Shown: positions 22,818 to 54,892 of the stretch, piece by piece
Numbering within the stretch: position 1 is the stretch's first letter
How the letters are laid out: every line of letters begins with the position of its first letter
NCBI GenBank assembly: GCA_009392915.1
Contig: CP045477.1
Location: forward strand, 384,001-448,000
Source: Candidatus Forterrea multitransposorum CG_2015-17_Forterrea_25_41
Lineage (GTDB): Archaea > Iainarchaeota > Iainarchaeia > Iainarchaeales > CSSED10-239
Length of the DNA stretch: 64,000 bases
Direction: 5' to 3'
Made by a program: the position numbers and the translations under genes
The notes under the pieces: generated by a model
Told to the model about the DNA's origin: nothing
What the model saw: only the letters and a program-made list of their open reading frames with translations
Databases searched by the model: none

Positions 22818-23406
22818 AAAAATGATATTATTTATGAAAATAAGAAAAATAAAATTAAGAGAGCTAAAAGAAGCAGATATTTTTAAAGAAAAAATATTAA
22901 ACCCAGAAAAAAAAAGAAGATATAGACCATATTATAAAATTTTAAAAAATTACAAAAGAGAGCCTTCTTTATTTATTGGAGCTTATGATAAAAATAGAAT
23001 TATAGGAGTTGCTTTTGGGCATATTATAAAAAATAGAATATTATTAGGTGAAATGGCTGTTTTAGAAGAGTATAGAAACAAAGGGATTGGAAAAAAAATA
23101 TTAAAAAAAATTGAACAAAATTCAAAAAAATTAAATAAGAAATATATAGAGCTTGGTGCTCTTGATAATGCAGAAAAATTTTATCTTAAACAAAATTACA
23201 AACCAATTATTTTTGTGCAAATATATCCAAAAAATATCTTGAAAAATTACAATCATTTAAATTATAAAATAATTAAAGAAACAAATTATGTTGATTCTAA
23301 AAGATTTTATATTGAGGTTAAAAGATATGATCCTAAATTAAAAGAAAAAATAGAAAAAGAATTTAAAGCATATGATGTAATCTATTTATTTAGAAAATAT
23401 TTATAA
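22792..23406 (+). CDS. GNAT N-acetyltransferase
   Basis: Motif A is YRNKGIGKKILKKIE (R/Q-x-x-G-x-G/A). Confidence 0.6.
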   Translation: MKSLKNIFKKMILFMKIRKIKLRELKEADIFKEKILNPEKKRRYRPYYKILKNYKREPSLFIGAYDKNRIIGVAFGHIIKNRILLGEMAVLEEYRNKGIGKKILKKIEQNSKKLNKKYIELGALDNAEKFYLKQNYKPIIFVQIYPKNILKNYNHLNYKIIKETNYVDSKRFYIEVKRYDPKLKEKIEKEFKAYDVIYLFRKYL

Positions 23407-26566: not shown

Positions 26567-27220
26567 TTAAGTATAAATTATTTTACTTTTTATAAATTTA
26601 ATTTCAAGTTTTTCTGTGCATTTAATTTTAATTATTATATTTGCACTTTTTGAAAAATTATCTGCAAAAATATTTATGTTTGAACTAATTTTATATATTT
26701 TATTTTTTTCAAATTTAATTTTAGGAAATCCAATAGGTATTTGTTTAATCATAGGTAAAATATTTCCATTTATATTTACACTTCCTTCAAAAAAATTAAA
26801 TAAATCTAAATAATGCAATTCATTTTTAGATAAATTAAAATTTTCTTTACCTTCAGAACATTTACCTTTATGAGTTGCACTCCAGACAAAATAATTAGGA
26901 TCAAAAGGATATATTTTTTTATTATTCAATTTTATTTCATTACATTTAATTTTAATATTGTTTATTGCTATTGAACCTATATTTATTACTTTTATTCTAA
27001 AATAAATTAAATTACAACTTGAACCATCATGTTGATTAATATAAATTTTATTAATCTTATGAACACAGTTAACATCATCTAAATCAATTTTAATTTTTGG
27101 TTTTTTAATAAAATTAATAATATCTTCTTTAAATAATGCAACAACTACTGCACATAGAGTTAAAAAAGCCATAATTATTTGAATAATTGAATCTAAATTA
27201 TTTTCAACCATCAATACCAT
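26567..27220 (-). CDS. Single-pass membrane protein, last gene of the R-M operon (overlaps hsdR stop by 17 bp)
   Basis: An N-terminal TM helix is followed by a beta-rich, Cys-containing ectodomain. IYFRIKVINIGSIAINNIKIK resembles IYFYLSNVGQRPTTIKKM in the 34397..34879 product. Confidence 0.4.
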   Translation of the reverse strand: MVLMVENNLDSIIQIIMAFLTLCAVVVALFKEDIINFIKKPKIKIDLDDVNCVHKINKIYINQHDGSSCNLIYFRIKVINIGSIAINNIKIKCNEIKLNNKKIYPFDPNYFVWSATHKGKCSEGKENFNLSKNELHYLDLFNFFEGSVNINGNILPMIKQIPIGFPKIKFEKNKIYKISSNINIFADNFSKSANIIIKIKCTEKLEIKFIKSKIIYT

Positions 27221-30200
27221 CTCTACAAATTCTTTCTGCTTGTTCTAAAACCAATTTTACTGCTTCTGCTTGCATATCAGGAGGATAACCATACTTTGAA
27301 AGAATTCTCTTAACCAAAACTCTTATCTTTGCTCTTTCAGTTTCTCTAATTTCCCAATCAACGCTTGTTGTATTCTTTTTAATAGTATCTGTTAAAATTT
27401 TTGCAATAACAACTATTTGTTTATCCCCTAAAACATCTAAAGCACTTTTATTATTTGAAAGAGCATCATAAAAAGCAACTTCATCTTCGGATAAATCAAG
27501 TTCTTCACCTTTCTTTTCAGAAGCTTTAATTTCTTTTGCAATTTTTAATAGTTCTTCAATAACTTCAACAGTTGTTATACTTCTATTAGTATATAATTTA
27601 ATAATATTTTCAATCATTTCCTTAAAAGATCTTTGTTTTACAATATTTTTTCTAAATCTGGATTTAATTTCATCATTAAGAAGTTTTCTATACATCTCTA
27701 ATGCTAAATTCTTTTGAGGTAAATTTTTAATTTCAAGCATAAATTCTTCAGAAAGTATAGAAATATCTGGTCTTTTAAGTCCTGCAACTTTTAAAACATC
27801 CATAATTCCAGAAGACATTATTGATTTTGAAATTAATTGATTTAAATTTTGTTCTAAAAGCTCAGTTTGAGAAATATTTCTAGTAACAGTATTTTTTACA
27901 AACTGTGATTTAATTGCTTGGAAAAATGCAATTTCTTCTTTTAAATCTAAAGCTCTTTTATCAGGAACTGCTAAAGAGAATGCTCTTAAAAGATTAATAG
28001 TTGCATCAATAAATCTTTTTTTACCATCTTCTTGTTTTAATATATGTTCCATTGCATTAATTAAAAGCTTCATTCTATAATTTGTGTCTTTATTTTCTAA
28101 ATCATATTCAAACTTATATAATAAAGATTTAACAACATCATATTTATTTAATAATAAATTTACTGCTTCTTCTTGATTAATTCCAACCTTTTGTTGATCT
28201 TTTGGAGAATAATTACCTAAGGCTTCTTTTAATTGAGTAAGTATACTTATATAATCTACAATTAATCCACCTTGTTTTTCTCCAAAAACTCTATTTACTC
28301 TTGCAATTGCTTGCATTAAATTATGGTCTTTCATTGGTTTATCAATATACATTGTATGAAGAGAAGGAACATCAAAACCAGTAAGCCACATATCTCTTAC
28401 AATTACAAGTTTAATCTCTGAAGAAGGATCTTTAAAAACATCTCCAATTTCTCTTCTTTTTTCTGAATTTCTAATATGTCTTTGCCAGTCTAAAGGGTCA
28501 GTTGCGTTACCAGTCATTATTACCTTTAAAAATCCTTTTTTATCATCTTCGTTATCCCACTCTGGTTTAATTTTTATTATTTCATTATATAAATCTACAC
28601 ATATTCTTCTAGACATACAAACAATAATACCTTTTCCTGGCATTCCTAGTTGTCTTTCTTGGAAATGATTTATTATATCTTTTGCAATTTCTTTAATTCT
28701 TTCAGGATGACCTATTATTTTTTCAATTCTTGCCCATTTACTTTTTAATTGTTCTTTTGTATCTTTTTCTTCAGTTTCTGTTACATATTCAAAATCTTTA
28801 TCTAAAGTTATTTGAGATTCTGGATTTAAAGATATTTTTGCAAGTCTACTTTCATAGTAAATAGGAACTGTCATTTTATCTTCAACAGCTTTACTGATAT
28901 CATAAACATCTACATTTTCTCCAAATACATTTCTTGTACTTTTATCACTTTTTTCAATTGGAGTTCCTGTAAAACCAATATAGGTTGCATTTGGAAGAGC
29001 ATCTCTTAGGTTTTTTGCAAAACCTTCTAAAAAACCATATTGTGATCTATGTGCTTCATCAACAATAACAACTATATTTTCTCTATTTGATAGTTCTGGA
29101 TAAACTTCTCCTTTATTTTCTGATGAAAATTTTTGAATTGTTGAAAAAATAACTCCTCCAGAAGATACTTGTAATAGTCTTTTAATTTCTTCTCTATCTT
29201 CTGCTTGTTTTGGATCTTGTCTTAAAACATCTTTACATTTTGAAAATGTTGTGAAAAGTTGATCATCTAGTTCGTTTCTATCTGTTAAAACTAATAAAGT
29301 TGGATTGTTTAGTTGTTGTATAACTTTTCCTGAATAGAAAAGCATGGTTAATGATTTTCCTGAACCTTGAGTATGCCAAACAACACCTGCTCTTTTATCT
29401 TTTCCTTTAACAGCTTTAATTGTTGAAGATACTGCATTGTTTGTTGCATTATATTGATGATATGCTGCTATTTTTTTAATAGTTTTATCTTTATCTGCTT
29501 CATAGACTATAAAATTGTTTATTAAGTCTAATAATGTTTCTTTATTTAACATTCCTCTTATTAAAACTTCTAATTGTGTTAAATAAGAGGCTTGATCTTT
29601 ATATATTGTTTTCCAGATCATGAATCTATCTAGATTTGAAGAAATTGTTCCAACTCTTGTGTCTGTTCCGTCTGAAATTACTAAAATTTGATTATAGTTA
29701 AAGATTGTTGGAATTTCTTGTTTGTATGTTTGTAATTGGTTGTATGCTTTTTTAATATCTGCATTTTCATCTGTTGGATTTTTTAATTCTATTAAAACAA
29801 CTGGTATTCCATTTATAAATAAAATAATGTCTGGTCTTCTGGTATGTTCAGTTTCTTTAATTGTAAATTGGTTTAATGCTATAAATTCATTATTGTTTAT
29901 GTTATCTTTGTCTATTAAGTTTATTTTTATCCATTTTAGGTTTCCATTTATTCTTGTTTGAACGGTTATTCCTTCTGTTAGATATTTGTAAATTTGTTTG
30001 TTGTTTTCTATTAGTTTTTGTGATTCTATTCTTTGTAGTTTTTTAATAGCTTCTTGTTTTGCATCTTCAGGAAGATTTGGGTTTATATCACTTATTTTTC
30101 TTTTTAAAGTTTCATTTAAGAGCACTTGTGAGAAATCATCTCTTTCTGGTCTTTGGCTATCTGGAGCTATGTCTACTCCATTAAGTTTAGTGTAACCTAT

Positions 30201-30260
30201 TTCTTCAAACCAAGAAAGTGCTTGGTTTTCCACATCTCCTTCTCTTAAAAATGATGTCAT
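27204..30260 (-). CDS. hsdR: Type I restriction enzyme R subunit (HsdR)
   Basis: SF2 helicase motifs TQGSGKS (I) and VVIVDEAHRSQ (II, DEAH) are present. The N-terminal nuclease region and C-terminal HsdR domain follow, over about 1018 aa. Confidence 0.9.
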   Translation of the reverse strand: MTSFLREGDVENQALSWFEEIGYTKLNGVDIAPDSQRPERDDFSQVLLNETLKRKISDINPNLPEDAKQEAIKKLQRIESQKLIENNKQIYKYLTEGITVQTRINGNLKWIKINLIDKDNINNNEFIALNQFTIKETEHTRRPDIILFINGIPVVLIELKNPTDENADIKKAYNQLQTYKQEIPTIFNYNQILVISDGTDTRVGTISSNLDRFMIWKTIYKDQASYLTQLEVLIRGMLNKETLLDLINNFIVYEADKDKTIKKIAAYHQYNATNNAVSSTIKAVKGKDKRAGVVWHTQGSGKSLTMLFYSGKVIQQLNNPTLLVLTDRNELDDQLFTTFSKCKDVLRQDPKQAEDREEIKRLLQVSSGGVIFSTIQKFSSENKGEVYPELSNRENIVVIVDEAHRSQYGFLEGFAKNLRDALPNATYIGFTGTPIEKSDKSTRNVFGENVDVYDISKAVEDKMTVPIYYESRLAKISLNPESQITLDKDFEYVTETEEKDTKEQLKSKWARIEKIIGHPERIKEIAKDIINHFQERQLGMPGKGIIVCMSRRICVDLYNEIIKIKPEWDNEDDKKGFLKVIMTGNATDPLDWQRHIRNSEKRREIGDVFKDPSSEIKLVIVRDMWLTGFDVPSLHTMYIDKPMKDHNLMQAIARVNRVFGEKQGGLIVDYISILTQLKEALGNYSPKDQQKVGINQEEAVNLLLNKYDVVKSLLYKFEYDLENKDTNYRMKLLINAMEHILKQEDGKKRFIDATINLLRAFSLAVPDKRALDLKEEIAFFQAIKSQFVKNTVTRNISQTELLEQNLNQLISKSIMSSGIMDVLKVAGLKRPDISILSEEFMLEIKNLPQKNLALEMYRKLLNDEIKSRFRKNIVKQRSFKEMIENIIKLYTNRSITTVEVIEELLKIAKEIKASEKKGEELDLSEDEVAFYDALSNNKSALDVLGDKQIVVIAKILTDTIKKNTTSVDWEIRETERAKIRVLVKRILSKYGYPPDMQAEAVKLVLEQAERICRDGIDG

Positions 30261-32140
30261 AATTTATCACAATTATTATTTTTAATAAAAACATATAATC
30301 TTTTTATTAATTCTTGAGTAATATTTGGTAAATCATTAAATTTTATTTCTTTATCAGTCATATATTTAATTGATTTTTTTGAAAATTCTAATTTAGAATT
30401 TATTTTTTTATATTTATTTGTATCTTGAATTGAATTAAATAAACTTGAATCTATTTTGTTATCTACAAATATATTTTGCCCTAATTCATCAGGAGTAAAA
30501 ACTTTATCTTTAAAACTAAAAATGTCATTAAAAATTTCACAAGGCAACAAATATTCTATTTCTTTATGATATGCCCAAAAATTAGAAGGTAAATTTTCAG
30601 ATAATATTTTTAATCTATTTCCTTTAATATTAATTTTTGGTTCAATAACATCATTTTCTGAATCTATAGATAAATATTTTTTACCAGTTAAAGGGTTATA
30701 ACCATCATTATCAGCAATAATAAAATTATTTTTATTAATTGCATCTACAGTAATTTTTAAATTATCTTCAATATCTAAAAAGTTAAAATGAACAATATTG
30801 CCTCCACCATATTCAATAAAAGAATAGTGTTTATCTTCATTAAATTTAATTAAACTTGAATCTGAATCAAAATATAATTCCAAATATTTTTTAATATATA
30901 GTCTATCAGATATCCCTTCTACCCAAATAATACAATTAGATAAAAATACAGATGAGTTACGTACTTCGAGTAAATCTAAAATATCCTTATTTTGAGTAGT
31001 ATTTTTAATTACAAAATTACTATTGTTTTTTTCAAATGAATAAATAGATTTATTATTATAATCAAGTGTAATATCTAAAAGATGATTGGAATGTGTAGTT
31101 ATAAATATTTGTGCATTTTTTGCAAATTCACTATTATATACTTCTAATAATTTTCTTTGCATCCCTGGATGTAATGTTAATTCTGGTTCTTCAATAAATA
31201 TTAATAAATTTTCATTAAAATATTTAAATAATGGAAAAGTACATATCATAATAGTCTGTAATCCATCTCCAAGTTCATAAATAGGTCTTTCAACATCATC
31301 AATTTGTATATACAGTACATCAGAATTAATATTAGGAATTAAATTTATGTGCCTATCATTAAAAAAAGATTTACTTAGAAAATCTTCATAATTTTTTATT
31401 AAATTTCTTTCTTTTTGACTTCCTAATAGCATTTTTTTAATATCCTCATATAAAGATAATCCTGTAAATATAAAACAATTGGGATATTTTGTATTAAAAT
31501 CAATAATATATTTATCAGAGTGATTTTCATTAAAATAATCGTATTTTGTTCTATCTTGATAACAATCAAAATCATTAAATAAAAAAGATTCACTAATTAA
31601 TTTTGATTTTTCATCAGAAGAATCATTTCTAATTATTGGTCTAAGACCTCTTAACATAGGAATATATAAATAAGTATATTTTTGATCTAATCCAACTGTT
31701 AGTTCATCTTTAGTTTTAATAAATTTATCTATAAATAGAGCTAATTCATTTGTTTTAATATTACCATTATAAGTAGTGACATCTCCATTAGTTGAAGTCT
31801 TTATATTTGTTTTAATTTCGTCGTGAAATTTTAAAGAAATAGACAGGTCAGAAACATATTCTATATCTTTATATTTTAAAGGAATATTTAACACTTCAGT
31901 ATTAGGTAATTTATCTATATTAGGATATTTTCTAATTAATTCTTTAGAAATATTTTCATACATATTATATACTTCTAAGGTTTTTACTGTATTATAAGTA
32001 GTTTTTTTACTAAATATATGTCTTAATAATCTACTCTTTCCAGAATTATTTCCACCTACAAAAATATTTAGTTTTGATAAACTATTAATAGTATCTGGAT
32101 AACCTTCAAAATTTAATTTAATATTTTTAATTAATTCCAT
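30257..32140 (-). CDS. OLD-family ATP-dependent nuclease (ABC-type ATPase plus Toprim), embedded between hsdS and hsdR
   Basis: Walker A is IFVGGNNSGKSRLL. Walker B and H-loop are LLIFIEEPELTLHP. The Toprim Glu is in CIIWVEGISDRLYI and the Toprim DxD is FIIADNDGYNP. Translationally coupled (ATGA overlaps) on both sides. Confidence 0.7.
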   Translation of the reverse strand: MELIKNIKLNFEGYPDTINSLSKLNIFVGGNNSGKSRLLRHIFSKKTTYNTVKTLEVYNMYENISKELIRKYPNIDKLPNTEVLNIPLKYKDIEYVSDLSISLKFHDEIKTNIKTSTNGDVTTYNGNIKTNELALFIDKFIKTKDELTVGLDQKYTYLYIPMLRGLRPIIRNDSSDEKSKLISESFLFNDFDCYQDRTKYDYFNENHSDKYIIDFNTKYPNCFIFTGLSLYEDIKKMLLGSQKERNLIKNYEDFLSKSFFNDRHINLIPNINSDVLYIQIDDVERPIYELGDGLQTIMICTFPLFKYFNENLLIFIEEPELTLHPGMQRKLLEVYNSEFAKNAQIFITTHSNHLLDITLDYNNKSIYSFEKNNSNFVIKNTTQNKDILDLLEVRNSSVFLSNCIIWVEGISDRLYIKKYLELYFDSDSSLIKFNEDKHYSFIEYGGGNIVHFNFLDIEDNLKITVDAINKNNFIIADNDGYNPLTGKKYLSIDSENDVIEPKINIKGNRLKILSENLPSNFWAYHKEIEYLLPCEIFNDIFSFKDKVFTPDELGQNIFVDNKIDSSLFNSIQDTNKYKKINSKLEFSKKSIKYMTDKEIKFNDLPNITQELIKRLYVFIKNNNCDKL

Positions 32141-33432
32141 TAATATTTCACCCTTATTTTTCCAGACATTAATTTAGGTAATAATAAATCTCTTATTTCA
32201 GATAATTTCTTATTTTGCCTTTTATTTTCTGAAATTTTAATAAATGTACTTCTGATCATTGAATTATATTTTTTCAATATTTCATTTGATGGATTCAATA
32301 TCTGTATTTTCTGAATGTTTTCATTATTAATTGCTTGCATTGTTGTACCATTACATAAGTTATTTTTTATTATTTCAAAATCATCATTTAATACAAAATT
32401 CCAAATATAATACAAAGCATTTTCTTTTATGTCTAACCCAGCAAATCCAGTAGATAAAATTAAATTTTCTAATTCCCAAGCGCTATACTTATCAAAATAA
32501 GTTATTTTTTTACTATTTTTCATTTTAGCAAACCACACTGTATTCTCTTTAGGTTGCATATTTGCTCTTGATGGTCTTTTTATAAATGTAATTTTAGTAT
32601 TATAATTTATTATTTCAGAATTATCTATATCTGCAGTTGCAACATATGTTTTTTCATCAAAGTCTTCTGTACCAACCTTTGTAAAAGACGTTAGATTATT
32701 GTCTCCTAAATGCCCAACATCCCATCCTTTAGGTATTTCTTTTTTTAATTCTTTATTATAAACCATTTCTCCTCCACTAGATTTATAAGGTTCTCCTTTT
32801 TCATTTGGAAATTCAAAATCAACAAACCATCTTTTAAATAAAGTTTTTCCTATTTCTTCAAGTGTTTGATTCATTTTTCTGTTTAGTTCTATTTTTTCAT
32901 CTAAATCAGAAAGGATTTTTGCAATTTTTAACATTTCATTATTATTTTTTGGAACTATAACTAGTAATTTTTTAATATCCCCTAAACTAAGTGTTTTTTG
33001 TGTAGAACCACCAACATTTTTTTCAATTTGATTTAAAATATATTTAGAATTTAAGGCATAATATAAAAAATAACTGTTTATATTCGGGTTAATTATCACC
33101 GTATTTTGCCCTAAACAAAATAATTCTGTTGTATTTACAAAACTTGTAATTCCATATGTTCCAACCCTAGTCATTATGATATCATTTTGCTTTGGGATAT
33201 AATTTTTAGTAAATTCATCATAAATAGATTTAGTAACTTTTAATGTATTTGATAAATCTAAACTACCTGATTTCACATCAGTTACTCTTACCATTGATAT
33301 TCCTTTATTAACATAAATTGGAGTTTTATGACAAGAATCAATAACTATAGATATATCATTTAATGATTTAACGTCCCAATCTTTAGGAATTAATCCAATT
33401 TCTGTTTTTTTAAATTTTATTTTATTAATCAT
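32140..33432 (-). CDS. hsdS: Type I restriction-modification specificity subunit (HsdS), two target-recognition domains
   Basis: The conserved central and C-terminal coiled-coil blocks (LSDLDEKIELNRKMNQTLEEIGKTLFKRWFVDFEFP ... LSEIRDLLLPKLMSGKIRV) are typical of HsdS. Confidence 0.85.
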   Translation of the reverse strand: MINKIKFKKTEIGLIPKDWDVKSLNDISIVIDSCHKTPIYVNKGISMVRVTDVKSGSLDLSNTLKVTKSIYDEFTKNYIPKQNDIIMTRVGTYGITSFVNTTELFCLGQNTVIINPNINSYFLYYALNSKYILNQIEKNVGGSTQKTLSLGDIKKLLVIVPKNNNEMLKIAKILSDLDEKIELNRKMNQTLEEIGKTLFKRWFVDFEFPNEKGEPYKSSGGEMVYNKELKKEIPKGWDVGHLGDNNLTSFTKVGTEDFDEKTYVATADIDNSEIINYNTKITFIKRPSRANMQPKENTVWFAKMKNSKKITYFDKYSAWELENLILSTGFAGLDIKENALYYIWNFVLNDDFEIIKNNLCNGTTMQAINNENIQKIQILNPSNEILKKYNSMIRSTFIKISENKRQNKKLSEIRDLLLPKLMSGKIRVKY

Positions 33433-34400
33433 AATATTTCCAATTTATGTTCTGAATTAACAATTTCATAAAAATCATTAATATAAGTAATTATGTTTAA
33501 ATATATCGTATTATTTTTTACATCTGATACTTCTATGTGAGAAGTTATTTCAAAAATAGATCCTGTTCTTGTTTCTTCAGGAATATTAATATTCTCAGAA
33601 TACTCTAAAATTCTAAAATTTTTAATTTTAACTTTATCTTCTCCAATTTCAATTTGATTTAATTTAGACATATAATCATTAATATAACTTTTAAAATCAT
33701 ATGAATTGCTAAATTCCTCAATTGAATTAATAAAATTTTCTTCAGGATAAATATTATCTAATTTAATAAATAAACCATCACCTATCGGTTCTATAACTAT
33801 ATCTTTATTAAATAACTCTTTAAATTCTAATGCACAATTTTTATTAAATCCTAAATCCCTTGTAATTAAAAATACATTTTCATAATCATCAAAATCTTGA
33901 GATAATATTGTCTCCCATATCAAGGCATCTTTAAAACCAGAATCAGATTTTTTATCTTTATTAAAAGGAGACTTTTTTTCTAATGCTCTTATTTTTAGAT
34001 CATTAAATTTTTGAAAAATTAAATCATCAGAAATTTTTAAAATTTTTATTTTGTTTTCAAAAATATAATTTCCAATTTTATCCAAAATAAAATCTTTTAT
34101 ATTAAAATCATCTGAAATTTTAAATAAGTTAATTTTCGAATCAATATAAGCATATCTTTTTTTAATGTCACCTAATTTTCTGCTATCGGATTTAAAACAA
34201 TCTCTTCTTTGTTTTTCTAATTCAAATAAAGTTATATCTGTTATTGATAATTTAATATATTCAAACAAATTTTTTTTAAAAATATAATCATACAATTTTT
34301 TAAAATCATTATTAAATGTAAAAGTATGATAATAAATATTATCACTACTATTTTCTTTTAACACATTTGTATCAAAAATAATTATTGTTTTTGGCATCAT
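33429..34400 (-). CDS. PIN-like domain protein (uncharacterised), first gene of the insert between hsdS and hsdM
   Basis: PIN-like acidic positions are present: IIIFDTNVL (D), TLFELEK (E), DALIWETIL (D/E) and FLITRDLGF (D). An extra C-terminal domain of about 130 aa follows. Start and stop overlap neighbours by 4 bp. Confidence 0.4.
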   Translation of the reverse strand: MMPKTIIIFDTNVLKENSSDNIYYHTFTFNNDFKKLYDYIFKKNLFEYIKLSITDITLFELEKQRRDCFKSDSRKLGDIKKRYAYIDSKINLFKISDDFNIKDFILDKIGNYIFENKIKILKISDDLIFQKFNDLKIRALEKKSPFNKDKKSDSGFKDALIWETILSQDFDDYENVFLITRDLGFNKNCALEFKELFNKDIVIEPIGDGLFIKLDNIYPEENFINSIEEFSNSYDFKSYINDYMSKLNQIEIGEDKVKIKNFRILEYSENINIPEETRTGSIFEITSHIEVSDVKNNTIYLNIITYINDFYEIVNSEHKLEIL

Positions 34401-34879
34401 TTAAAATCAAATATTTTCTTTTTATTAGAATAATTAATTATTATTTTATATTTTAAATTGTTTTCTAAATTCATCTCTTTTTCAAAATTTTCTTTTGAAC
34501 TATAATTTAATTTAACTAATATTTTATCAGTGTGATTTGGTTGTAATAGAAATGGAAATATAACTGGTTTATATGATGGTAGAGGATAACTTGTTTTTAA
34601 ACCAACACCCAAACTTACAGATTCAGATACATTCAAATAAACTGAATTAGGCATAAATTTAGTTTTATTATGATATAATTCCATCTTCTTAATTGTAGTT
34701 GGTCTTTGACCAACATTACTTAAATAAAAATAAATCCAAATTTCATTTTCATCCATCTTAACTTCTAAAACTTCTTTTTCAACATATAATTTAGGTTTAT
34801 TTTTACTTTCTATATAAAAAGATAATAATATACCTAATATTGCAACTATTAAACCCAATATACTAATTATATATTCCAT
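34397..34879 (-). CDS. Small single-pass membrane protein (N-terminal TM plus beta-rich domain), RM-embedded
   Basis: MEYIISILGLIVAILGILLSFYI is the TM helix. It has weak similarity to the 26567..27220 product. Confidence 0.4.
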   Translation of the reverse strand: MEYIISILGLIVAILGILLSFYIESKNKPKLYVEKEVLEVKMDENEIWIYFYLSNVGQRPTTIKKMELYHNKTKFMPNSVYLNVSESVSLGVGLKTSYPLPSYKPVIFPFLLQPNHTDKILVKLNYSSKENFEKEMNLENNLKYKIIINYSNKKKIFDFK

Positions 34880-35370
34880 TAGTTATCATTTTTCTTTTTA
34901 AACTTTCTAATTAATGCTAATAATAGTTCTTGTTTAAAAAATATTATACTTAGTAATTCTATACCAAAAGCAATATTTAAAACAACAGATAATTTAAAAT
35001 TATTAATTATTGTTTTGTAAATACTTATTTGACTATTTTCTATATTTTCAAATTTTTGATTTAAATTAGTTATTTGATACTGTATAATATTATAATCATT
35101 TTTTATTTCTTCAAAATCTTTTTTAGTTATATTTTCTGTTATTAATTTGTTATAGTCAGACTGACAATTTTTTAGTTGTGAACTAATCTGTATTATATTG
35201 TTATTTAATGTAATTTTATTTAATTCACAATTATTTAATTTATCTACAATAGGTTTACATTTATCCTCTGATAATAAACCAAACAATCCTTGTATAATTG
35301 GAATAAATATCATCACAATTATAAACACAACTAAAATACCTCCAATTATTGCAAATGGATTATCCGCCAT
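34879..35370 (-). CDS. Small membrane protein with N- and C-terminal TM helices flanking a coiled-coil segment, RM-embedded
   Basis: AIIGGILVVFIIVMIFIPII is the N-terminal TM and VVLNIAFGIELLSIIFF the C-terminal TM. The middle is heptad-like and N/Q/K/E-rich. Confidence 0.4.
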   Translation of the reverse strand: MADNPFAIIGGILVVFIIVMIFIPIIQGLFGLLSEDKCKPIVDKLNNCELNKITLNNNIIQISSQLKNCQSDYNKLITENITKKDFEEIKNDYNIIQYQITNLNQKFENIENSQISIYKTIINNFKLSVVLNIAFGIELLSIIFFKQELLLALIRKFKKKNDN

Positions 35371-35372
35371 AT

Positions 35373-36890
35373 CTATTTCACCTCAAAGCCGATTCCTTTA
35401 AGATTTTTCTTAATCTCTTCTTCTAATTTCTTAGATTCTTTAAATTGTTCGCTTAATTCTTTTGTAAGGCGAGTCATCTTTTCTTGAAAAACTTCAGGAT
35501 CTTCCTCTTCTTCCTTAAAACCAACGTAACGGCCAGGTGTAAGAATAAAGTCTTGCTTTTCAATCTCTTCAAGAGAGGCTGATTTACAAAAAGAAAGCTC
35601 ATCTTGATAACTTTTTTTGTTTATCGGGTCTTTTGACCTCCAAAGAGAAACAGTTTCTGAAATTTTTGTAAAATCTTCTTCAGTGAGTTCTCTTTGTCTT
35701 CTGTTAATCATTTGTCCAAGATTTCTAGCATCAATAAAAAGAGTTTCTCCTTTTCTATGTGCAGGTTTATTTCTATTAACAAACCAAAGACAAGCAGGAA
35801 TCATTGTATTATAAAATAATTGAGATGGAAGAGCAATAATACACTCTACAAGATCATCTTTAAGTATATTTTTTCTAATTTCTCCTTCTCCAGAAGTATT
35901 AGAACTTAAAGAACCGTTTGAAAGAACAAAACCAGCAATTCCTTTAGATCCTAAATGATAAATAAAATGTTGAACCCATGCAAAATTAGCGTTCCCTGCA
36001 GGAGGAACTCCATATTTCCAACGAGCATCCTCTCTTAATAGATCTCCAGACCAGTCTGAATCATTAAAAGGAGGATTTGCAATTATAAAATCAGCTCTTA
36101 AGTCTTTATGTTCATCATTTAGAAAACTACCTTCATTATTCCAAACAACTTTATTATCAATACCTCTTATTGCAAGATTCATTTTACATAATTTCCAAGT
36201 TGTTTGATTAGATTCTTGACCATAAATAGATATTTGACCTATTTTTCCACCATGTTTTTCAACAAACTCTTCAGATTGAACAAACATTCCTCCAGAACCA
36301 CAACAAGGGTCAAATATTCTTCCTTTAAAAGGTTGTATTATTTCAACTAATAATTTAACAATAGATTTAGGAGTATAGAATTGGCCTCCTTTTTTTCCTT
36401 CAGCAGAAGCAAATTGTCCTAAGAAATATTCATATACTCTTCCTAAGATATCTTTACTATTATCTTTAGAATTAAAAGAAATTGTTCCTATAAGATCAAT
36501 TAACGCTCCTAATTTTGTTTTATCTAAAGATGGTTTTGAATAATCTTTTGGAAGTATTCCTTTAAGTGTTGGATTTTCTTTTTCAATTAAATCCATTGAA
36601 TCATCAATAATTCTTCCAATTTCTATATTTTTTGCATTATCTTGAAGATATTCCCATCTTGCTTTTTTTGGAACATAAAATACTCTTTGAGAGACATATT
36701 CATCTTTATCTTCTGGGTCTGCATATTCTTCTTCTTTTAGTTTAGTATATAGTTCTTCAAAAGAATCAGATATATATTTTAAAAATATTAAACCTAAAAC
36801 TACATGTTTATATTCTGCAGCATCCATATTACTTCTTAATTTATCTGCTGCTTTCCAAAGCTTTTCTTCAAATCCTAAATCTTGAGTCAT
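35373..36890 (-). CDS. hsdM: Type I restriction-modification DNA N6-adenine methyltransferase (HsdM)
   Basis: The HsdM N-terminal domain is present. Motif I is [13 protein letters not shown] and motif IV is IIANPPFN. Confidence 0.9.
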
Positions 36891-36960
36891 AATTAATCTC
36901 TTCTTTTATATAAATATAATATACATCTAAACACTTTTAAAGGTATTATGTATTAAAAAA

Positions 36961-37347
36961 CTATTCAAATCTAATCTCTTTTCTATCATCTTCTATTGCT
37001 TGTTTTATTTTATTATATTCTTCTTCACTTAACTCTATTATATTACTATAAGTATAATCTTCCTTTGCAAGCTTAAATCTTTCTTGTAAAGAACGTGCAC
37101 CAAGACCTTTATTAGATAAAAGTAATAAAGAAAGTTTAATCTGATAAGGATATGGTTTTTTCCAAGAAGTAAATTCATTGTCTACTTTTTTAATAACTTT
37201 AAATATTCCAAAAATTACTCCTTGACCATAATATACAATAATATCATCTAAATTAACTAAATCTCTTTCATTTTTGTCTATAAAACCACAATATTCTTTT
37301 GTTTTAACAAAAGATTCCCAAGAATGGTTAATTAAGTAATATTTCAT
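36961..37347 (-). CDS. PUA-like EVE-domain protein (tentative)
   Basis: A 128-aa protein starting MKYYLINHSWESF..., with DDIIVYYGQGVIFGIFKV resembling the EVE beta-barrel core. It lies 70 bp upstream of the hsdM start. Confidence 0.35.
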   Translation of the reverse strand: MKYYLINHSWESFVKTKEYCGFIDKNERDLVNLDDIIVYYGQGVIFGIFKVIKKVDNEFTSWKKPYPYQIKLSLLLLSNKGLGARSLQERFKLAKEDYTYSNIIELSEEEYNKIKQAIEDDRKEIRFE

Positions 37348-37349
37348 TT

Positions 37350-38729
37350 TTAATCATATCTAAATCCATATTTTTCAGTTAATTTTTGCCATTCATCATG
37401 ATATTTTTTCCATTCATTATATTCAAATTCATCTAATACCTGGCCAGAACCATAACTATCTAATTTATTTTGCAAAAATTTTAATCTCAAATTATCATCA
37501 TATTCTTCTTTAACACTTTCAAAAGATTTACCTTCAGAAACAACATAAATATTTGGCTTTGAAATTAATTTACCTACTCCAATATAATCTCCATCACTAT
37601 CTGTAATAATACTTGGAGTTGTTGTTTCTATAAAACAATAACCAGAATTATTATAAGAATATTTAATTGGGCATTTTAATCCTATTGAAGCATGCTGCTC
37701 TAATTCAAAACTAAAAATTGCAACACCATAACCTAACTCTTTTAACATTAATGCAAGTAAATTTGTTTTATCCCCACAAACTCCTGTTTGATCATATAAT
37801 GTTTCATAAGCATATCTATTACTATAATTATGATTAAAAGAATCCCAATCATAAGGCATTGTTTGAACTAAACTGATTGCAATCCTTGCTTGATCATCAG
37901 TATTATTTGTTATTTTTTTAATTTCATTAATTAATGGTAGAATATATCTTTCTTGATCTTCAGTATTAACATACATTAATGACATATATTCAGAAGTAGG
38001 AGGAGATTCATAAGAAGAATAAGTTACTGTTCGAGGTAAATTTGACAAATAATAATTAAACCCATTATAGACAGTGTAATTAAAACTATTAGGTACACCT
38101 CTTAGAGTATAATTTAACTTAATTGGCTTAGGTTCAGTTTGCAATTTATGTAAACACTTCCCATTAATATAAATTTCATCTATATCACATAAACATTTTT
38201 CAGGAAACTCAATTAAATTACCTTTCTGACAAAAATAAGGCTTAATATTTGAACAATTATTATATAAAGTACCATCTTCACACCTATTAATAACAAAATT
38301 AAATAATAAATTCATAATTATATAAATTAGAATAATAATAATAACAATATTTCTTAATTGTTTAAATCTAATTTTTTTAAGTAAATGAATAACTAAAGTT
38401 AAAATTAAACTATTTAGTAAAATTATTATAAAAAAGTTAAAACTAACCTTTAATAATAGATAATTAAAACTTAATAAAATAATAACATAAACTAAAGTCC
38501 ATATAAATAAATAAAAATTAAATCTAAATTTATTTTTATAAATTATAACAGTTATTATGCGTGAAAATAAACTAAATATGATTGCTATAAATACTAATTT
38601 AGTGGTATTATTAACAATATTTAATAAATTTAAAAATAAAGAAGATAAATAATATAATAGACTATAAATTAATATCCAAAATAGAAACCAGTAAGATTTA
38701 TAAAATCTAAAAATATTATTATTTCTCAT
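37350..38729 (-). CDS. Polytopic membrane protein with C-terminal transglutaminase-like cysteine-protease domain
   Basis: About six N-terminal TM helices and a Cys-rich linker precede the domain. GVCGDKTNLLALMLKELGYGVAIF (Cys), EQHASIGL (His) and CFIETT follow. Confidence 0.45.
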   Translation of the reverse strand: MRNNNIFRFYKSYWFLFWILIYSLLYYLSSLFLNLLNIVNNTTKLVFIAIIFSLFSRIITVIIYKNKFRFNFYLFIWTLVYVIILLSFNYLLLKVSFNFFIIILLNSLILTLVIHLLKKIRFKQLRNIVIIIILIYIIMNLLFNFVINRCEDGTLYNNCSNIKPYFCQKGNLIEFPEKCLCDIDEIYINGKCLHKLQTEPKPIKLNYTLRGVPNSFNYTVYNGFNYYLSNLPRTVTYSSYESPPTSEYMSLMYVNTEDQERYILPLINEIKKITNNTDDQARIAISLVQTMPYDWDSFNHNYSNRYAYETLYDQTGVCGDKTNLLALMLKELGYGVAIFSFELEQHASIGLKCPIKYSYNNSGYCFIETTTPSIITDSDGDYIGVGKLISKPNIYVVSEGKSFESVKEEYDDNLRLKFLQNKLDSYGSGQVLDEFEYNEWKKYHDEWQKLTEKYGFRYD

Positions 38730-38746
38730 TTTATCACATTAATATT

Positions 38747-39094
38747 TCAATGTCTTTTTTTAATTGATCTTTTAGAAATATTAGAACTTCTATATCTTAC
38801 AGGTTTACTTTTTCTATAAGAATCTTTTAAAACAGAATCACTTTCATTTTTTAAATCATGAATAGTTGGTTCTTTATAACCTAACTGCTTTAAAGCAGAA
38901 TCAAATATCTTTGTAAAGCTTAAGTTATTCTCTTGTACAAATCTTTCTTGACTTTTTGTAATTCTCATATTTATTCTTATATTTCTTCTTTCTGGAGAAG
39001 TATCTCTTTTTACATCTTCTATATTCATATAAATCAATCCCTTAAATACACTTTTCCCAATCAAGAGCATAGTGTATATACAACTTTGACACAA
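38747..39094 (-). CDS. Small basic protein, possibly ribbon-helix-helix DNA-binding (true start probably the internal Met at MNIEDVK...)
   Basis: RNIRINMRITKSQERFVQENNLSFTKIFDSALKQL fits a beta-alpha-alpha RHH pattern. Weak. Confidence 0.3.
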   Translation of the reverse strand: MCQSCIYTMLLIGKSVFKGLIYMNIEDVKRDTSPERRNIRINMRITKSQERFVQENNLSFTKIFDSALKQLGYKEPTIHDLKNESDSVLKDSYRKSKPVRYRSSNISKRSIKKRH

Positions 39095-39164
39095 CGAGTT
39101 TATAAATAGATCGATTACACTAAAATATAATAAAAAGAGAAGATTAAAAAATAAATCTTATCTA

Positions 39165-39890
39165 CTAAACTTTAATCTCTATTAAAACAGGATTATGGTC
39201 ACTAAATCTTCTAATTTCATCATTTTCAAGAACTTTGCAAGAAATAATGTTTTTAAAAATAGGTTTATTCATAAAAAAGTAATCATTTTGCCACTTAACT
39301 TTACTTTTTTTATGTCTTAAGGTCTGTACAGGATATTCTTTATCAGTTAAATCAAAAGCATCAAAAAAATTAAAATCTTTTAATCTATCAAAAAAAATCT
39401 TATGAGAGTTATTATATTTATATATTAAATCAAATTGAATACTTGCATTTAAATCTCCCCCCAATATAATATTTCTTTTACCATTAAGTTTACCATAAAA
39501 CAAAGGAGATAAATCAGATAACATGCTATGTAGATTAGGAATTGAATAACCATCTGTCATAAGACCATATAATGATATAAAAGTAAGTTTTTTATTATTT
39601 ATAACAGTATTTGCTATTGTTAAAGATCCATTAAATTTAGTATTTATTGTTTCCTGAGAAAGATTGTATTTTTTACTATAAATTCCAGATCCCCAATTAC
39701 GATTTTTATCAATTTTATTCCAAATAAGATTTGAATCTTTTTTAATATGTTCAGGAGGATTTGATTCTTGAAATAAATATATATCTGCATCAATATTATT
39801 TAAAAAATAATCCCAAATATCTTTATTTAGCTTTTTATTTTTCCAATAATCCATATTCCAAGTAACTATTTTAATATTCATTCTTATCAA
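39165..39890 (-). CDS. Endonuclease/exonuclease/phosphatase (EEP) family protein
   Basis: IVTWNMDYW, FQESNP, GGDLN and SDHNPV match conserved EEP catalytic blocks. Confidence 0.7.
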   Translation of the reverse strand: MIRMNIKIVTWNMDYWKNKKLNKDIWDYFLNNIDADIYLFQESNPPEHIKKDSNLIWNKIDKNRNWGSGIYSKKYNLSQETINTKFNGSLTIANTVINNKKLTFISLYGLMTDGYSIPNLHSMLSDLSPLFYGKLNGKRNIILGGDLNASIQFDLIYKYNNSHKIFFDRLKDFNFFDAFDLTDKEYPVQTLRHKKSKVKWQNDYFFMNKPIFKNIISCKVLENDEIRRFSDHNPVLIEIKV

Positions 39891-39898
39891 TTTTTATT

Positions 39899-40738
39899 TT
39901 AAATAACCTTCTTAATATTCTTTTCCAAGTAAACAATAAACTTATCTTTATTCTTTCCTTTTAACTTTTCCCAAGAATTATATACTTTTCTTATTTTATC
40001 TTCTAAAATAATATCTTCTTTATCATTATATCTGTATCTTGCATATTTTTCTTTATTATAACCTAACTTATATGCTAAAATATTTTCAATAGTAGATGTA
40101 AAAGTTTCACTAAATGACTGCTTTTTTATTCCACCATATTTATCTAAAATATATTTTTCAATTCTATTATATATTTCATTATTTGAATTAATTACATGAA
40201 TAAGTTCATGAATTAATAAAATATATATTCTATTTTTAGTAAATTTTCTATAATCAACATCATCTCCTATAGATATATGAAAAGATAAATTTGTTGCAGA
40301 ACCTCCAAAACCAGGCCTTGTATTATTTGCAACAAAGAAAGTAGAGCTTACTTTTGTAGAATTATAAATAACATCTAAATAAGGTTTAATTATTTTAAGT
40401 TCTTTCTCTTTAAAATTAGTTATAAATGTATTTAGAAAATCTTCTGATTTTTTATTAATAACAATAGGAAATAATTTTTTTAAAACAATTAGATGTTTTT
40501 TTTCAATATTACTTAATTTTTTTTTATTAACAATATTATCTATTAAATTTTTGTAATTAAGCCTATTTGTAGAAATAATACTATAATCTTTATTAATCAA
40601 AAAAATTAAATCTACCATTTCTTTTAATTGATTTTTATTAGCAAAAGTATAAACTTTATCAATATTACAATATGCTTTACAAGCAAGTCTTAAATCTTTT
40701 GAAGGTTTTATTAAGTTTAGTTTAATATCAACACTCAT
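39899..40738 (-). CDS. Hypothetical HExxH-motif protein (putative zinc metallopeptidase)
   Basis: ILLIHELIHVINSNNEIYN. Nothing else is diagnostic. Confidence 0.3.
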   Translation of the reverse strand: MSVDIKLNLIKPSKDLRLACKAYCNIDKVYTFANKNQLKEMVDLIFLINKDYSIISTNRLNYKNLIDNIVNKKKLSNIEKKHLIVLKKLFPIVINKKSEDFLNTFITNFKEKELKIIKPYLDVIYNSTKVSSTFFVANNTRPGFGGSATNLSFHISIGDDVDYRKFTKNRIYILLIHELIHVINSNNEIYNRIEKYILDKYGGIKKQSFSETFTSTIENILAYKLGYNKEKYARYRYNDKEDIILEDKIRKVYNSWEKLKGKNKDKFIVYLEKNIKKVI

Positions 40739-40805
40739 AAAGATATCTATTAAATAAAGGTTTTTTAAAAGTTATGTTTAATAAGGAGCTATCATAAACT
40801 AAAAA

Positions 40806-41147
40806 TTAAACATTTACCCAAATAACACAACCTTTCTTATGAACGTAAGGTTTTGGAGAAGAATATCTTTTGATATCAGACAATACCCAAGCATGAGGAT
40901 TATTATATTTTAAATCTAAAACATCTTCTTTCTTTATTTGATGCTTTTCTAAGTTTTTAAATAAAATATCTTTGTTAATTTTTATTGAATCTTTAATAGT
41001 ACATTCACCATATACTTTTTTGCTGCCACTCATAATAAGAGCAATTCTTTCACCAATCTTTGAAGTATTAAAGTTTCTTATCTCCCAAGTCTTTTTTCCT
41101 TCTAAGATTAAATTTAACCATTTTTCTTTAATTATAAGGCCTTTCAT
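40806..41147 (-). CDS. ASCH-domain (PUA-like) protein
   Basis: MKGLIIKEKWLNLILEGKKTWEIRNF...GERIALI matches the ASCH N-terminal beta-barrel signature. About 113 aa. Confidence 0.55.
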   Translation of the reverse strand: MKGLIIKEKWLNLILEGKKTWEIRNFNTSKIGERIALIMSGSKKVYGECTIKDSIKINKDILFKNLEKHQIKKEDVLDLKYNNPHAWVLSDIKRYSSPKPYVHKKGCVIWVNV

Positions 41148-41244
41148 AAAAGATATCTATATTTCAAAAGGCTTTTAAACTCTTTTATGTAGTAATTAAA
41201 CTATTTATTAAAAAACAAAAATATATCTTAATTAAGATGATAAA

Positions 41245-42603
41245 TTATTTATCAATAACTTTCCAATATCCTGCTTTGTCTGAACCTATTCTTTTTATCT
41301 TCTTTTGCTCTTTTAATATTTTTAAATATCTTTCAATAGTCTTTGTACTTAAATTAAATTCTGTTGCCATTTGAGCATAAGTAACTTTATTATTAGCTTT
41401 AATTAATTTTAATATTTTTACACCGACATTTACACCGACATTTACACCGACATTTACACCGACATTTACAGTGTCTTTTACAGGTGCATTTACACCGACA
41501 TTCATAGTAGATTCTATTATTTTTTGTCTTTTAAAAACAATACAAAACCAATCAGTATCTATATTAAACTTAACACTTGGAAAAAGTTTTTTTATTCTTT
41601 TAATACCAGAACCAATCTTTTCAATAAACTCTGTTCTTTGTAAACAACCTGCTAAAATAGGATTTCTTAATATACTTACTTTTCCAAAATCTTTTGGACT
41701 AAAAAGAAGTTTTCCTGGATTTAATATTTCAACTCTATCTTCATACACTTCTACCAATATTCTTCCTTGAACAAAATAATCTCTATGAATCATGGCATTT
41801 AGTACTGCTTCCCTTAAAGCAGCCTCTGGTATTTCAGGGGTTTCAACTCTTCTTAAATTAATAATATCAGCCCGTGTTTTTGTATTTCTTAGGATAAATA
41901 ACACAGCATTTTCAAAATTTGATAAAAAGTCAGATTCAAATACTTTTTTATCAAGCATAACAGCCTTAGTATCTCCTTGGTATAAAACACAACTAATATC
42001 TGCATTTAAAAAGAATTTAGTAATTCTTTTTGAAAATAATAATGCACAGGCATTATTTGGAATATCATTTGTTAAAAGATTTAAATTTTTTAAAATATGC
42101 TCTTTTGATAGAGTTGTTGAAAATTTTGCTTTTTTTCTATATTTAAGAAATTTAGTATTATCTATATCTTTAAAATTAAATGAAGAAGTTTGTTTTTCAA
42201 AAGAAATTTTATTTTCGTTTTGTAAAAAATCAATAATTTCATTTCTATCTAGCTTTTGAGAGTTAGCACCTTGCCTTACATAAAAAGAACCACCTACTAA
42301 ATATGGTTTATCTTTTCCTAAAGGAACATATATTATACCAATATTATCTATGATTTCAAAATTAACAACTAAAGAGGGATCTATGTTTCTTGCAATTGTT
42401 TGTACTTCAGAGGAAAATCTATTGTTTATAGAAATACCTTTTATTTCTCCTTTATCTGTAACTCCTAAAAGAATTTTACCTCCATCTGAGTTTGCAAAAG
42501 CACAAATTGATTTTCCAATTTCTTTATGGTTTAAACTTTCTTTAAACTCAAGAGTATATCCTTCTCCTGTTTTTATAAGATTAAGTAAGTTCTTTTTATC
42601 CAT
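41245..42603 (-). CDS. AlbA_2 (Schlafen-like) domain plus divergent HATPase_c_4 ATPase plus C-terminal wHTH; putative ATP-dependent transcriptional regulator (RecG-C-terminal-like family)
   Basis: The AlbA_2 N-terminus is LIKTGEGYTLEFKESL...AFANSDGGKILLGV. The C-terminal HTH is KVTYAQMATEFNLSTKTIERYLKILK. An in-frame (VGVN)n linker lies between the domains. Confidence 0.6.
   Translation of the reverse strand: MDKKNLLNLIKTGEGYTLEFKESLNHKEIGKSICAFANSDGGKILLGVTDKGEIKGISINNRFSSEVQTIARNIDPSLVVNFEIIDNIGIIYVPLGKDKPYLVGGSFYVRQGANSQKLDRNEIIDFLQNENKISFEKQTSSFNFKDIDNTKFLKYRKKAKFSTTLSKEHILKNLNLLTNDIPNNACALLFSKRITKFFLNADISCVLYQGDTKAVMLDKKVFESDFLSNFENAVLFILRNTKTRADIINLRRVETPEIPEAALREAVLNAMIHRDYFVQGRILVEVYEDRVEILNPGKLLFSPKDFGKVSILRNPILAGCLQRTEFIEKIGSGIKRIKKLFPSVKFNIDTDWFCIVFKRQKIIESTMNVGVNAPVKDTVNVGVNVGVNVGVNVGVKILKLIKANNKVTYAQMATEFNLSTKTIERYLKILKEQKKIKRIGSDKAGYWKVIDK
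41419..41502. repeat. 12-bp tandem repeat (tacaccgacatt)x7, five perfect and two degenerate, in-frame within the AlbA_2 regulator gene
   Basis: Perfect units start at 41419, 41431, 41443, 41455 and 41491; degenerate units at 41467 and 41479. On the coding strand they encode NVGVNVGVNVGV... Confidence 0.85.
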
Positions 42604-54314: not shown

Positions 54315-54321
54315 TTAAAAG

Positions 54322-54391
54322 TCCCCTCAACCGGATTTGAACCGATTCTAAAAGGTCTACAGCCCTTTGTGCTATCATTACACCATGAGGG
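54322..54391 (-). tRNA. tRNA-Tyr (anticodon GTA), about 71 nt, CCA not encoded
   Basis: The minus-strand RC is CCCCTCA-TG-GTGT-AATGATA-GCAC-A-AAGGG-CTGTAGA-CCTTT-TAGA-ATCGG-TTCAAAT-CCGGT-TGAGGGG-A. Acceptor 7/7 bp, D-stem 4 bp, anticodon stem 5 bp (one G-U), T-loop TTCAAAT. Confidence 0.75.
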
Positions 54392-54892
54392 GTTTTTTCT
54401 TCTTTAATATTTCTTCTTTTTAAAAAAATAAAAAAAGAGGTCATCTTTTATCCTCTAAGTCTCACCATCTTCTTTCTCAAATCATCTGTATCCATAGCTA
54501 TGCTTATAAGGTTATTTTTTAAAAGCCTACTCAGGTTATGCCTAAGCGTTCTATCAGATATATTCAATGATTGATTTAATTGAGAAATAGAAATTGACTC
54601 ACGACTAGATAACTCTTCTAATATCTTTTTAGATGTTTTTGTAATAGGGACACTGGGTTTTTATCCTTTTAACATCACTTAAAACCCAACACCTTTTATC
54701 GTCGTTCATAAATAAGTAAATAAAGAGAAAAGCTTTTAAAGACAAAGAAAGTGGCAATTATTTAATTTTGTCCAAGAAATATAGAAATTACCTTTATAGA
54801 GAAAAATACATAAAGTTTATATATATTATGTTTATACTATATAAATATATTATATATATGAAAACTTATAAACAAACGAGGTAGACTTAAAA

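Follow-up and report, generated by a model that had tools for sequence, protein, structure and literature searches.

The type I restriction-modification (R-M) operon that lies in a 64,000-nucleotide (nt) stretch of Candidatus Forterrea multitransposorum (contig CP045477.1, positions 384,001 to 448,000; hereafter the window) carries three additional open reading frames (ORFs) between hsdM and hsdS, encoding a two-domain protein of the PIN_12 family (ORF323) and two small membrane proteins (ORF160 and ORF163). Comparison with related operons demonstrates that these genes belong to three separate R-M-linked families that combine freely, rather than to one three-part system. In some bacteria, moreover, PIN_12 proteins carry the C-terminal tail of the restriction subunit HsdR at their own C-terminus. 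Defense genes embedded in type I operons have been described before; the three uncharacterized families and the HsdR-tail fusion are new.

The operon is an unbroken run of minus-strand genes, ORF128, hsdM, ORF163, ORF160, ORF323, hsdS, ORF627, hsdR, and ORF217, clearly packed into one transcription unit (Table 1). Families were assigned by profile searches against Pfam, NCBIfam, and PADLOC-DB v2.0.0. The three inserted ORFs are real, co-oriented and tightly packed, and occupy the positions between hsdM and hsdS given by the initial annotation. Its statement that every junction is an ATGA overlap applies to two of the four: when read from the sequence, ORF160/ORF323 and ORF323/hsdS each share the 4-nt ATGA, but ORF163 and ORF160 overlap by 1 nt (TAATG), and hsdM and ORF163 do not overlap, with the hsdM TAG stop codon (35375-35373) followed by a 2-nt spacer and the ORF163 ATG at 35370. 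A Shine-Dalgarno-like motif, GAGGTGA, is located 7 nt before this ATG. The three ORFs are not chance open frames, because at the G+C content of the region (~22%) about 9% of random codons are stops, and a random open frame of 160 codons has an arithmetical chance of ~1e-7. Conserved homologs were found for all three. The ratio of nonsynonymous to synonymous substitution rates (dN/dS), calculated against a relative with 86-91% identity, is 0.44 for the PIN gene, 0.30 for ORF160, and 0.13 for the end of hsdM. In the NCBI annotation (NCP79258 to NCP79263), ORF323 is listed as a 'DUF4935 domain-containing protein' and ORF163 and ORF160 as 'hypothetical protein'.

Related archaeal operons with near-identical HsdM and HsdR hold differing cargo at the same site, and the full trio was found elsewhere only in locus L065, a 100% identical copy of the window locus. 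In L005, whose PIN protein is 86% identical to that of the window, two unrelated ORFs of 93 and 63 amino acids (aa) replace ORF163 and are accompanied by an ORF160-like gene and PIN_12, while the hsdM-hsdS slot of L058 holds SduA_C (a Shedu-type nuclease), an ORF160-like gene, and PIN_12. The L060/L061 slot contains ORF163-like (profile E 3e-9) and ORF160-like genes together with an unrelated 267-aa protein, and that of L055 contains DUF3800, a 219-aa protein, and an ORF160-like gene. An unrelated 379-aa transmembrane (TM) protein accompanies PIN_12 in L001, and PIN_12 alone lies directly between hsdM and hsdS in L006 and L007. Neither membrane gene accompanies PIN_12 in L001, in L006-L010, or at any of the 44 loci of our survey of Genome Taxonomy Database (GTDB) genomes, where no ORF160- or ORF163-family gene was detected. 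The 379-aa protein of L001 was also considered as an ORF163-ORF160 fusion, and was rejected as it has no similarity to them.

The locus L089, which shares 97% nucleotide identity with the window, matches it up to exactly the hsdM stop codon, beyond which different small genes and then housekeeping genes are encoded; the hsdM-hsdS slot is therefore a recombination breakpoint even between strains. The matching segments correspond to window positions 35374-39160, with the same upstream genes and hsdM, and 23392-24924. In L089, hsdM is followed by ORFs of 119 and 266 aa, the latter with the HEPN-like motif RNKVIH (Rx4H), by a 38-aa fragment with IFDTN, and then by SRP54. This locus has no hsdS or hsdR and has a PPDK-like gene (window 23401-24924) on its other side, indicating that it has been rearranged. 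Across L055, L058, L062, L077, and L079, the slots hold other cargo of a defense-like kind, namely SduA_C, DUF3800, Bles03, a faint HNH match, and several unknown ORFs, and up to five genes occur between hsdS and hsdR in related archaeal-type operons. An AbiEii gene in L062 lies just upstream of hsdM, outside the slots.

The initial annotation described the 323-aa protein as PIN-like with an additional C-terminal domain, and both features are confirmed by profile and model. ORF323 matches Pfam PIN_12 (PF16289, formerly DUF4935) at 44.3 bits (cut-off 32, E 3.3e-11), with the full profile (positions 1-172) aligned to residues 7-185. In an alignment of 51 homologs, residues D10, E60, D158, and D182 and the motif GFKDALIWE are invariant or nearly so, and the AlphaFold2 model, which is confident (predicted local distance difference test score, pLDDT, 89.7), has a PIN-like alpha/beta/alpha fold with the four conserved acidic residues. 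As the D-E-D-D residues are conserved and the model is both confident and PIN-like, ORF323 is probably an active metal-dependent nuclease. RNA is favored as its substrate because the family groups with VapC-like PIN domains and because Cosus, a phage defense protein discussed below, has been assigned an RNA-binding PIN12 domain; ORF323 is thus probably an RNase of the VapC-like group. Residues 205-323 are modeled as helices plus an antiparallel sheet, with an NTF2/cystatin/VirB8-like fold, and may form an interaction or sensor domain. Both the length of ORF323 and this C-terminal alpha/beta region fit the description of PIN_12 proteins (about 350 aa with a less conserved C-terminus), and in the published account of DUF4935 (PMC5499597) the PIN-like domain precedes an alpha/beta region whose fold was not known. 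No match to an ATPase or to PrrC was found for ORF323 in Pfam, NCBIfam, or PADLOC, a tblastn search of PLSDB plasmids returned no match, and no solved PIN_12 structure was found by sequence.

To survey PIN_12, an alignment scan was applied to one genome per GTDB species, which gave the 44 loci mentioned above. A same-strand hsd gene lies within 700 bp of PIN_12 at 36 of these, and in 23 of the 44 the order is hsdM, PIN_12, hsdS, usually with overlapping genes; in a few, PIN_12 instead lies between hsdS and hsdR or follows hsdR. PIN_12 is placed directly between hsdM and hsdS, without the membrane genes, in dozens of bacterial and archaeal genomes, and nearly all PIN_12 operons retain an intact HsdR. 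Most hosts belong to Bacillota; the others include Bathyarchaeota, Methanimicrococcus, an uncultured archaeon, a Mollicutes metagenome-assembled genome (MAG), Haloplasma, an alphaproteobacterial MAG, and Denitrobacterium. The same gene order was found in all three IMG/VR contigs with the gene (3/3). Pairwise distances correlate between PIN and HsdM (Mantel r 0.64), between PIN and HsdR (0.66), and between HsdM and HsdR (0.94). Since PIN and Hsd distances correlate, these data point to long co-inheritance, and are consistent with PIN_12 being a long-term resident of one type I R-M lineage across Bacillota and Archaea, with the PIN gene evolving faster. Extra opposite-strand copies of hsdS occur in many PIN_12 operons (L025, L026, L036, L040, L047, L048, and L049), mostly in Bacillota, with L049 belonging to the archaeon Methanimicrococcus; such an arrangement characterizes phase-variable (shufflon-type) type I systems.

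A second line of evidence comes from long-form PIN_12 proteins (458-506 aa), which occur in Bacillus, Priestia, Staphylococcus, and Mammaliicoccus and at loci L011 and L022. All of them carry the HsdR C-terminal tail at their own C-terminus. The Pfam model T1RH-like_C matches the long form P0037 at 30.2 bits (cut-off 26.8), and a profile made from 29 HsdR tails (the last 110 residues of each protein) detects every long form, with E down to 2e-10. Among short forms this profile matched only L017, weakly (E 3.6e-5) and at residues 32-64, outside the C-terminus. In the description given in PMC2602864, the helical domain at the HsdR C-terminus mediates protein-protein interactions, and its supposed partner is the methyltransferase. 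This Rosetta-stone-type evidence, which is indirect for the short form, suggests that PIN_12 proteins of the hsd-linked clade would work on the HsdM2S core.

The two membrane proteins likewise agree with the initial annotation, which had proposed a single-pass protein with a beta-rich domain and a TM/coiled-coil/TM protein. The ORF160 model (pLDDT 84.4) comprises a TM helix at residues 2-26 and a beta-sandwich of ~130 aa. Hydropathy places hydrophobic segments of ORF163 within residues 1-36 and, past an intervening helical region, within residues 125-154, so that its plan is an N-terminal TM segment, a Cys-bearing helical/coiled-coil region of ~90 aa, a C-terminal TM segment, and a basic tail. 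The ORF163 family alignment has two conserved Cys and the motifs ENITKKDxExIK and LNQKF, and 46 cluster representatives were found at E ≤ 1e-3, nearly all of 164-205 aa. ORF160 belongs to a small archaeal family with five homologs at 48-64% identity, one of them from the record 'Candidatus ainarchaeum sp.', a name that we take to be Candidatus Iainarchaeum of the DPANN kingdom Nanobdellati. Both families are uncharacterized and were found only in uncultured archaea and metagenomes; Pfam has no family for either, no member of either was found in IMG/VR, and the ORF163 family gave no consistent Pfam or PADLOC family.

Both families are also linked to type I operons. The ORF163 family occurs almost exclusively within such operons. 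A metagenome scan for it, using a narrow alignment, yielded 22 loci. When distinct loci are counted and L060 and L062 are taken in, 18 of 22 have hsd genes, and the four without them are contigs of ≤2.7 kb. Wherever the loci could be mapped, the gene lies in the hsdM-hsdS or the hsdS-hsdR slot, mostly abutting an hsd gene and often as the sole insert, as in L066, L072, and L078. The accompanying HsdM proteins range from close to quite distant relatives of the window HsdM, and among the 22 loci of the scan PIN_12 adjoins ORF163 only in L065. Similarly, hsd genes accompany the ORF160 family at six of seven distinct loci, the exception being a contig of ≤2.7 kb; where the sequence on both sides could be read, this gene sits between hsdM and hsdS. 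By this linkage ORF163 and ORF160 may be regarded as R-M-linked accessory membrane proteins, with possible tethering or membrane-effector roles. Three other interpretations were rejected. ORF163 is not a membrane-anchored mimic of the HsdS coiled coil (hhalign against 12 HsdS sequences, probability 0.2%). ORF160 is not a prepilin (archaeal type IV pilin or archaellin), as it has no class III signal peptide, with its short basic leader and a cleavage site ahead of the hydrophobic helix. ORF160 and ORF217 have a TM segment, a KPK motif, and beta strands in common, but they are not paralogs (BLASTP E 0.16, hhalign probability 0.5%).

These observations can be accommodated by a tentative model, to which we assign a little less than an even chance. 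The hsdM-hsdS and hsdS-hsdR junctions would serve as cargo slots for accessory genes, with ORF163, ORF160, and ORF323 as three independent occupants of the first, co-transcribed with the operon and probably translationally coupled. ORF323, a soluble protein, would bind the HsdM2-HsdS core and be held latent there as a back-up nuclease. If the core were perturbed, for example through an anti-restriction protein of a virus or because a restriction reaction stalls, ORF323 might be released or activated; its cleavage of nucleic acid would then halt the infected cell. The scheme would follow the logic of PrrC with a different effector and without PrrC homology, and the prr-like back-up role proposed by the initial annotation is plausible for the PIN protein. 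ORF163 and ORF160 would be stand-alone modules that either anchor the R-M complex to the membrane, at the point of entry of foreign DNA, or damage membranes as effectors. Docking on the core is suggested because the embedding is near-obligate, the gene lies between the two methyltransferase genes, and PIN_12 is fused to the HsdR tail in the long forms.

Several observations weigh against this docking model. The HsdR-tail profile does not match the short-form PIN_12 of the window, and the tail-fused genes are placed after hsdR and not between hsdM and hsdS. No hsd neighbor is present at eight of the 44 PIN_12 loci, and DUF4935 genes in general have been described as mostly monocistronic (Matelska 2017; PMC5499597). 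Co-inheritance by itself can yield correlated PIN and Hsd distances. Each survey searched with one sequence motif and so samples the subfamilies near its query. Family placement is the sole basis for RNA as the target of ORF323, as genomic linkage is for the function of ORF163 and ORF160, whose fold matches are generic. Lastly, Cosus, a PIN12-domain protein by description, protects as a single integron cassette, so that PIN_12 proteins could act autonomously.

Autonomous action is the core of the main alternative, which we consider rather unlikely: PIN_12, ORF163, and ORF160 would be self-sufficient defense genes that reside among hsd genes for shared regulation and joint horizontal transfer, with no contact with the R-M enzyme. 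In addition to the Cosus precedent and the PIN_12 loci without hsd neighbors, many embedded systems studied by Payne et al. also act alone, 96.7% of embedded genes being co-oriented with their host system, and the turnover of cargo between close operons resembles that of a hotspot for recombination, which the hsdS-hsdR site has been proposed to be. However, the linkage of PIN_12 (36/44) and of the ORF163 family (18/22) is much tighter than ordinary defense-island association, and the insertion separates hsdM from hsdS, two genes whose translation is normally coupled. If PIN_12 never touched the core, its fusion to the HsdR tail would be difficult to account for, and the correlated PIN and Hsd distances also argue against autonomy.

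PIN_12, and possibly ORF163 and ORF160, could alternatively be true extra subunits of a distinct type I lineage, with PIN_12 docked on the HsdM2S1 core, at the HsdR site or close to it, as an additional effector that cuts RNA or DNA, and the membrane proteins tethering or coupling the enzyme to the cell membrane. We regard this as unlikely; if true, it would constitute a four- to five-component, membrane-linked type I system of a kind not described before. Less probable still is that the three proteins are accessory factors of a four- to five-component R-M enzyme and no back-up defense; PIN_12 would then help restriction, for example by degrading cut DNA further, or stabilize the operon as an addiction toxin, and the membrane proteins would place the enzyme at the membrane. 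The intact HsdR of nearly all PIN_12 operons indicates that PIN_12 is no replacement for it, PIN_12 groups with VapC-like RNases and not with DNA flap nucleases, ORF163 has no similarity to HsdS, and close operons function, by inference, without these genes.

The proposal of the initial annotation that the trio is a single abortive-infection system, a soluble nuclease with two membrane partners that backs up R-M, is very improbable and contradicted by the gene distribution. In its favor, the window genes adjoin and overlap one another in a single orientation, an ORF163-like gene is paired with an ORF160-like gene in one further case (L060/L061), and L005 and L058 each combine an ORF160-like gene with PIN_12. 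However, homologous operons without these ORFs exist among the relatives whose hsdM-hsdS inserts were surveyed, the trio is complete only in the identical copy L065, PIN_12 lacks both membrane genes at all 44 GTDB loci and in L001 and L006-L010, ORF163-family genes stand alone in many operons, ORF160-family genes have other partners, and ORF163 is replaced in the close relative L005. The broader notion of defense-type genes carried as accessories of an R-M operon is plausible and agrees with earlier cases.

The same operon contains further inserted genes that the initial annotation missed, ORF627 and the 217-aa membrane ORF (ORF217). ORF627 fills the second slot, between hsdS and hsdR, overlapping its neighbors by 1 and 4 nt. 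It matches AAA_15 (E 4.5e-17), AAA_21 (E 5e-16), and, weakly, OLD-like_TOPRIM (E 0.006), as well as the PADLOC models NsnB, AriA, GajA, and Old (E 1e-13 to 2e-18), and by these matches is a second, recognizable embedded defense gene. The closest solved relative of HsdR is EcoR124I HsdR (E 1e-48). ORF217 overlaps the end of hsdR by 17 nt and has a TM segment at residues 8-38 followed by a beta-rich remainder; it had no family match and no homolog among the loci retrieved, and is possibly another accessory gene. Homologs of ORF128 occupy the same position in L055 (3598-3999, E 4e-66) and L089 (3334-3720). It may be the first gene of the operon, or it may regulate the operon, for which RptR, encoded upstream of a type I island in E. 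coli (PMC12255303), provides an analogy. Upstream of the operon, the minus strand of the window (37350-42603) encodes a multi-TM transglutaminase-like protein and endonuclease/exonuclease/phosphatase-family, ASCH-domain, and Schlafen/AlbA_2-HATPase_c_4-HTH proteins, which suggest a defense-rich neighborhood. The sole RNA gene detected in the window by Rfam and ARAGORN searches is a tRNA-Tyr (GTA) at 54321-54392 on the minus strand.

Table 1. Genes and domains of the type I R-M operon, in order of transcription; coordinates are positions in the 64-kb window, and all operon genes are on the minus strand.
Feature	Position	Strand	Length	Evidence and remarks
ORF128	36961-37347	-	128 aa	70 nt upstream of hsdM; no Pfam match
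hsdM, methyltransferase subunit	35373-36890	-	505 aa	Pfam N6_Mtase E 3.9e-111, HsdM_N E 1e-27
ORF163, small membrane protein	34879-35370	-	163 aa	Hydropathy, family alignment
ORF160, single-pass membrane protein	34397-34879	-	160 aa	Predicted structure
ORF323, two-domain PIN_12 protein	33429-34400	-	323 aa	Pfam PIN_12
ORF323 residues 1-200, predicted PIN_12 (DUF4935) nuclease domain	33801-34400	-		D10, E60, D158, D182
ORF323 residues 205-323 plus stop codon, C-terminal alpha+beta domain	33429-33788	-		NTF2/cystatin/VirB8-like fold (model)
hsdS, specificity subunit	32140-33432	-	430 aa	Pfam Methylase_S E 3.7e-17
ORF627, ABC-type ATPase and OLD-type TOPRIM region	30257-32140	-	627 aa	AAA_15, AAA_21, OLD-like_TOPRIM
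hsdR, restriction/translocase subunit	27204-30260	-	1018 aa	TIGR00348 E 1.2e-198
ORF217, membrane-anchored beta-rich ORF	26567-27220	-	217 aa	TM at 8-38; no family match

As the initial annotation had surmised, the trio does not correspond to a described system, and the PADLOC and NCBIfam searches returned no defense-system match for it. In PADLOC v2, ORF323 and ORF160 had no match at E ≤ 1 and ORF163 had only a weak coiled-coil match to JetC. Ten PIN_12 homologs and 31 ORF163-family members likewise had no PADLOC match through their own core domain, the latter showing scattered coiled-coil matches. PADLOC v2 would not flag the three families because it has no models for them. We found no paper on the linkage of PIN_12/DUF4935 to type I operons or to the hsdM-hsdS junction: Matelska 2017 mentions PIN-like genes near type I R-M in general terms only, and a paper on a 'new type I variant' of S. 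xylosus concerns a short hsdS and not the PIN gene.

The VapC toxin of VapBC shares with ORF323 the VapC-like PIN fold and the acidic active site. VapC, however, is about 130 aa, in comparison with about 320-370 aa for PIN_12 proteins with their extra C-terminal domain, and ORF323 has no small DNA-binding antitoxin gene, the gene upstream encoding a membrane beta-sandwich protein. In most loci PIN_12 directly abuts hsdM and hsdS, unlike the pairing of VapC with an antitoxin. Cosus (brc24) blocks phage T7, and point mutations in its PIN12 domain weaken protection (bioRxiv 10.1101/2024.07.02.601719). It shares the domain family of ORF323 by its authors' assignment, and it is a stand-alone cassette of a mobile integron without R-M linkage. 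A further likeness concerns the fusions: the C-terminal ~150 residues of PADLOC PDC-S15 match the HsdR-like tail of the Bacillus long forms P0029 and P0037, while its N-terminal part differs, and PDC-S15 does not match the window PIN_12 at all; the staphylococcal long form P0049 had no PADLOC match. Use of the HsdR docking tail may thus extend to other effector families, and the fusion provides a concrete hypothesis of how the condition of a restriction enzyme might be sensed by a back-up nuclease.

Defense genes embedded in type I operons are well established, including the functional systems PrrC, TgvAB, and DarTG2, as well as RloF/GmrSD and the candidates (HEC and PDC) from the study of Payne et al., who validated 'guilt by embedding' and whose models have been added to PADLOC. 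TgvAB (Vibrio VPI-2), DarTG2 (the RRDM island of enteropathogenic E. coli, EPEC), and RloF/GmrSD are encoded, as here, by co-oriented genes between hsd genes, in slots thought to be recombination hotspots, and ORF627 matches ATPase-TOPRIM models like other embedded defense systems. In contrast to TgvAB, DarTG2, and RloF, which lie between hsdS and hsdR (or hsdR and hsdS), the main slot of the window operon is hsdM-hsdS. A parallel in logic is PrrC/EcoprrI, PrrC occurring almost exclusively in type I R-M operons. PrrC is a latent nuclease, silenced by the R-M protein and fired when phage inhibit restriction, and ORF323 may be controlled similarly. PrrC, however, combines an ABC-ATPase with an anticodon nuclease and lies between hsdS and hsdR of a type IC operon, whereas in ORF323, encoded between hsdM and hsdS, PIN_12 is joined to an NTF2-like domain and there is no ATPase. 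Few passengers of type I operons have been characterized so far. The present work adds three candidate families, of which ORF163 and ORF160 would, if functional, give type I R-M its first known membrane components, and the linkage of the three families to type I operons appears, within this sample, comparably tight to that of PrrC.

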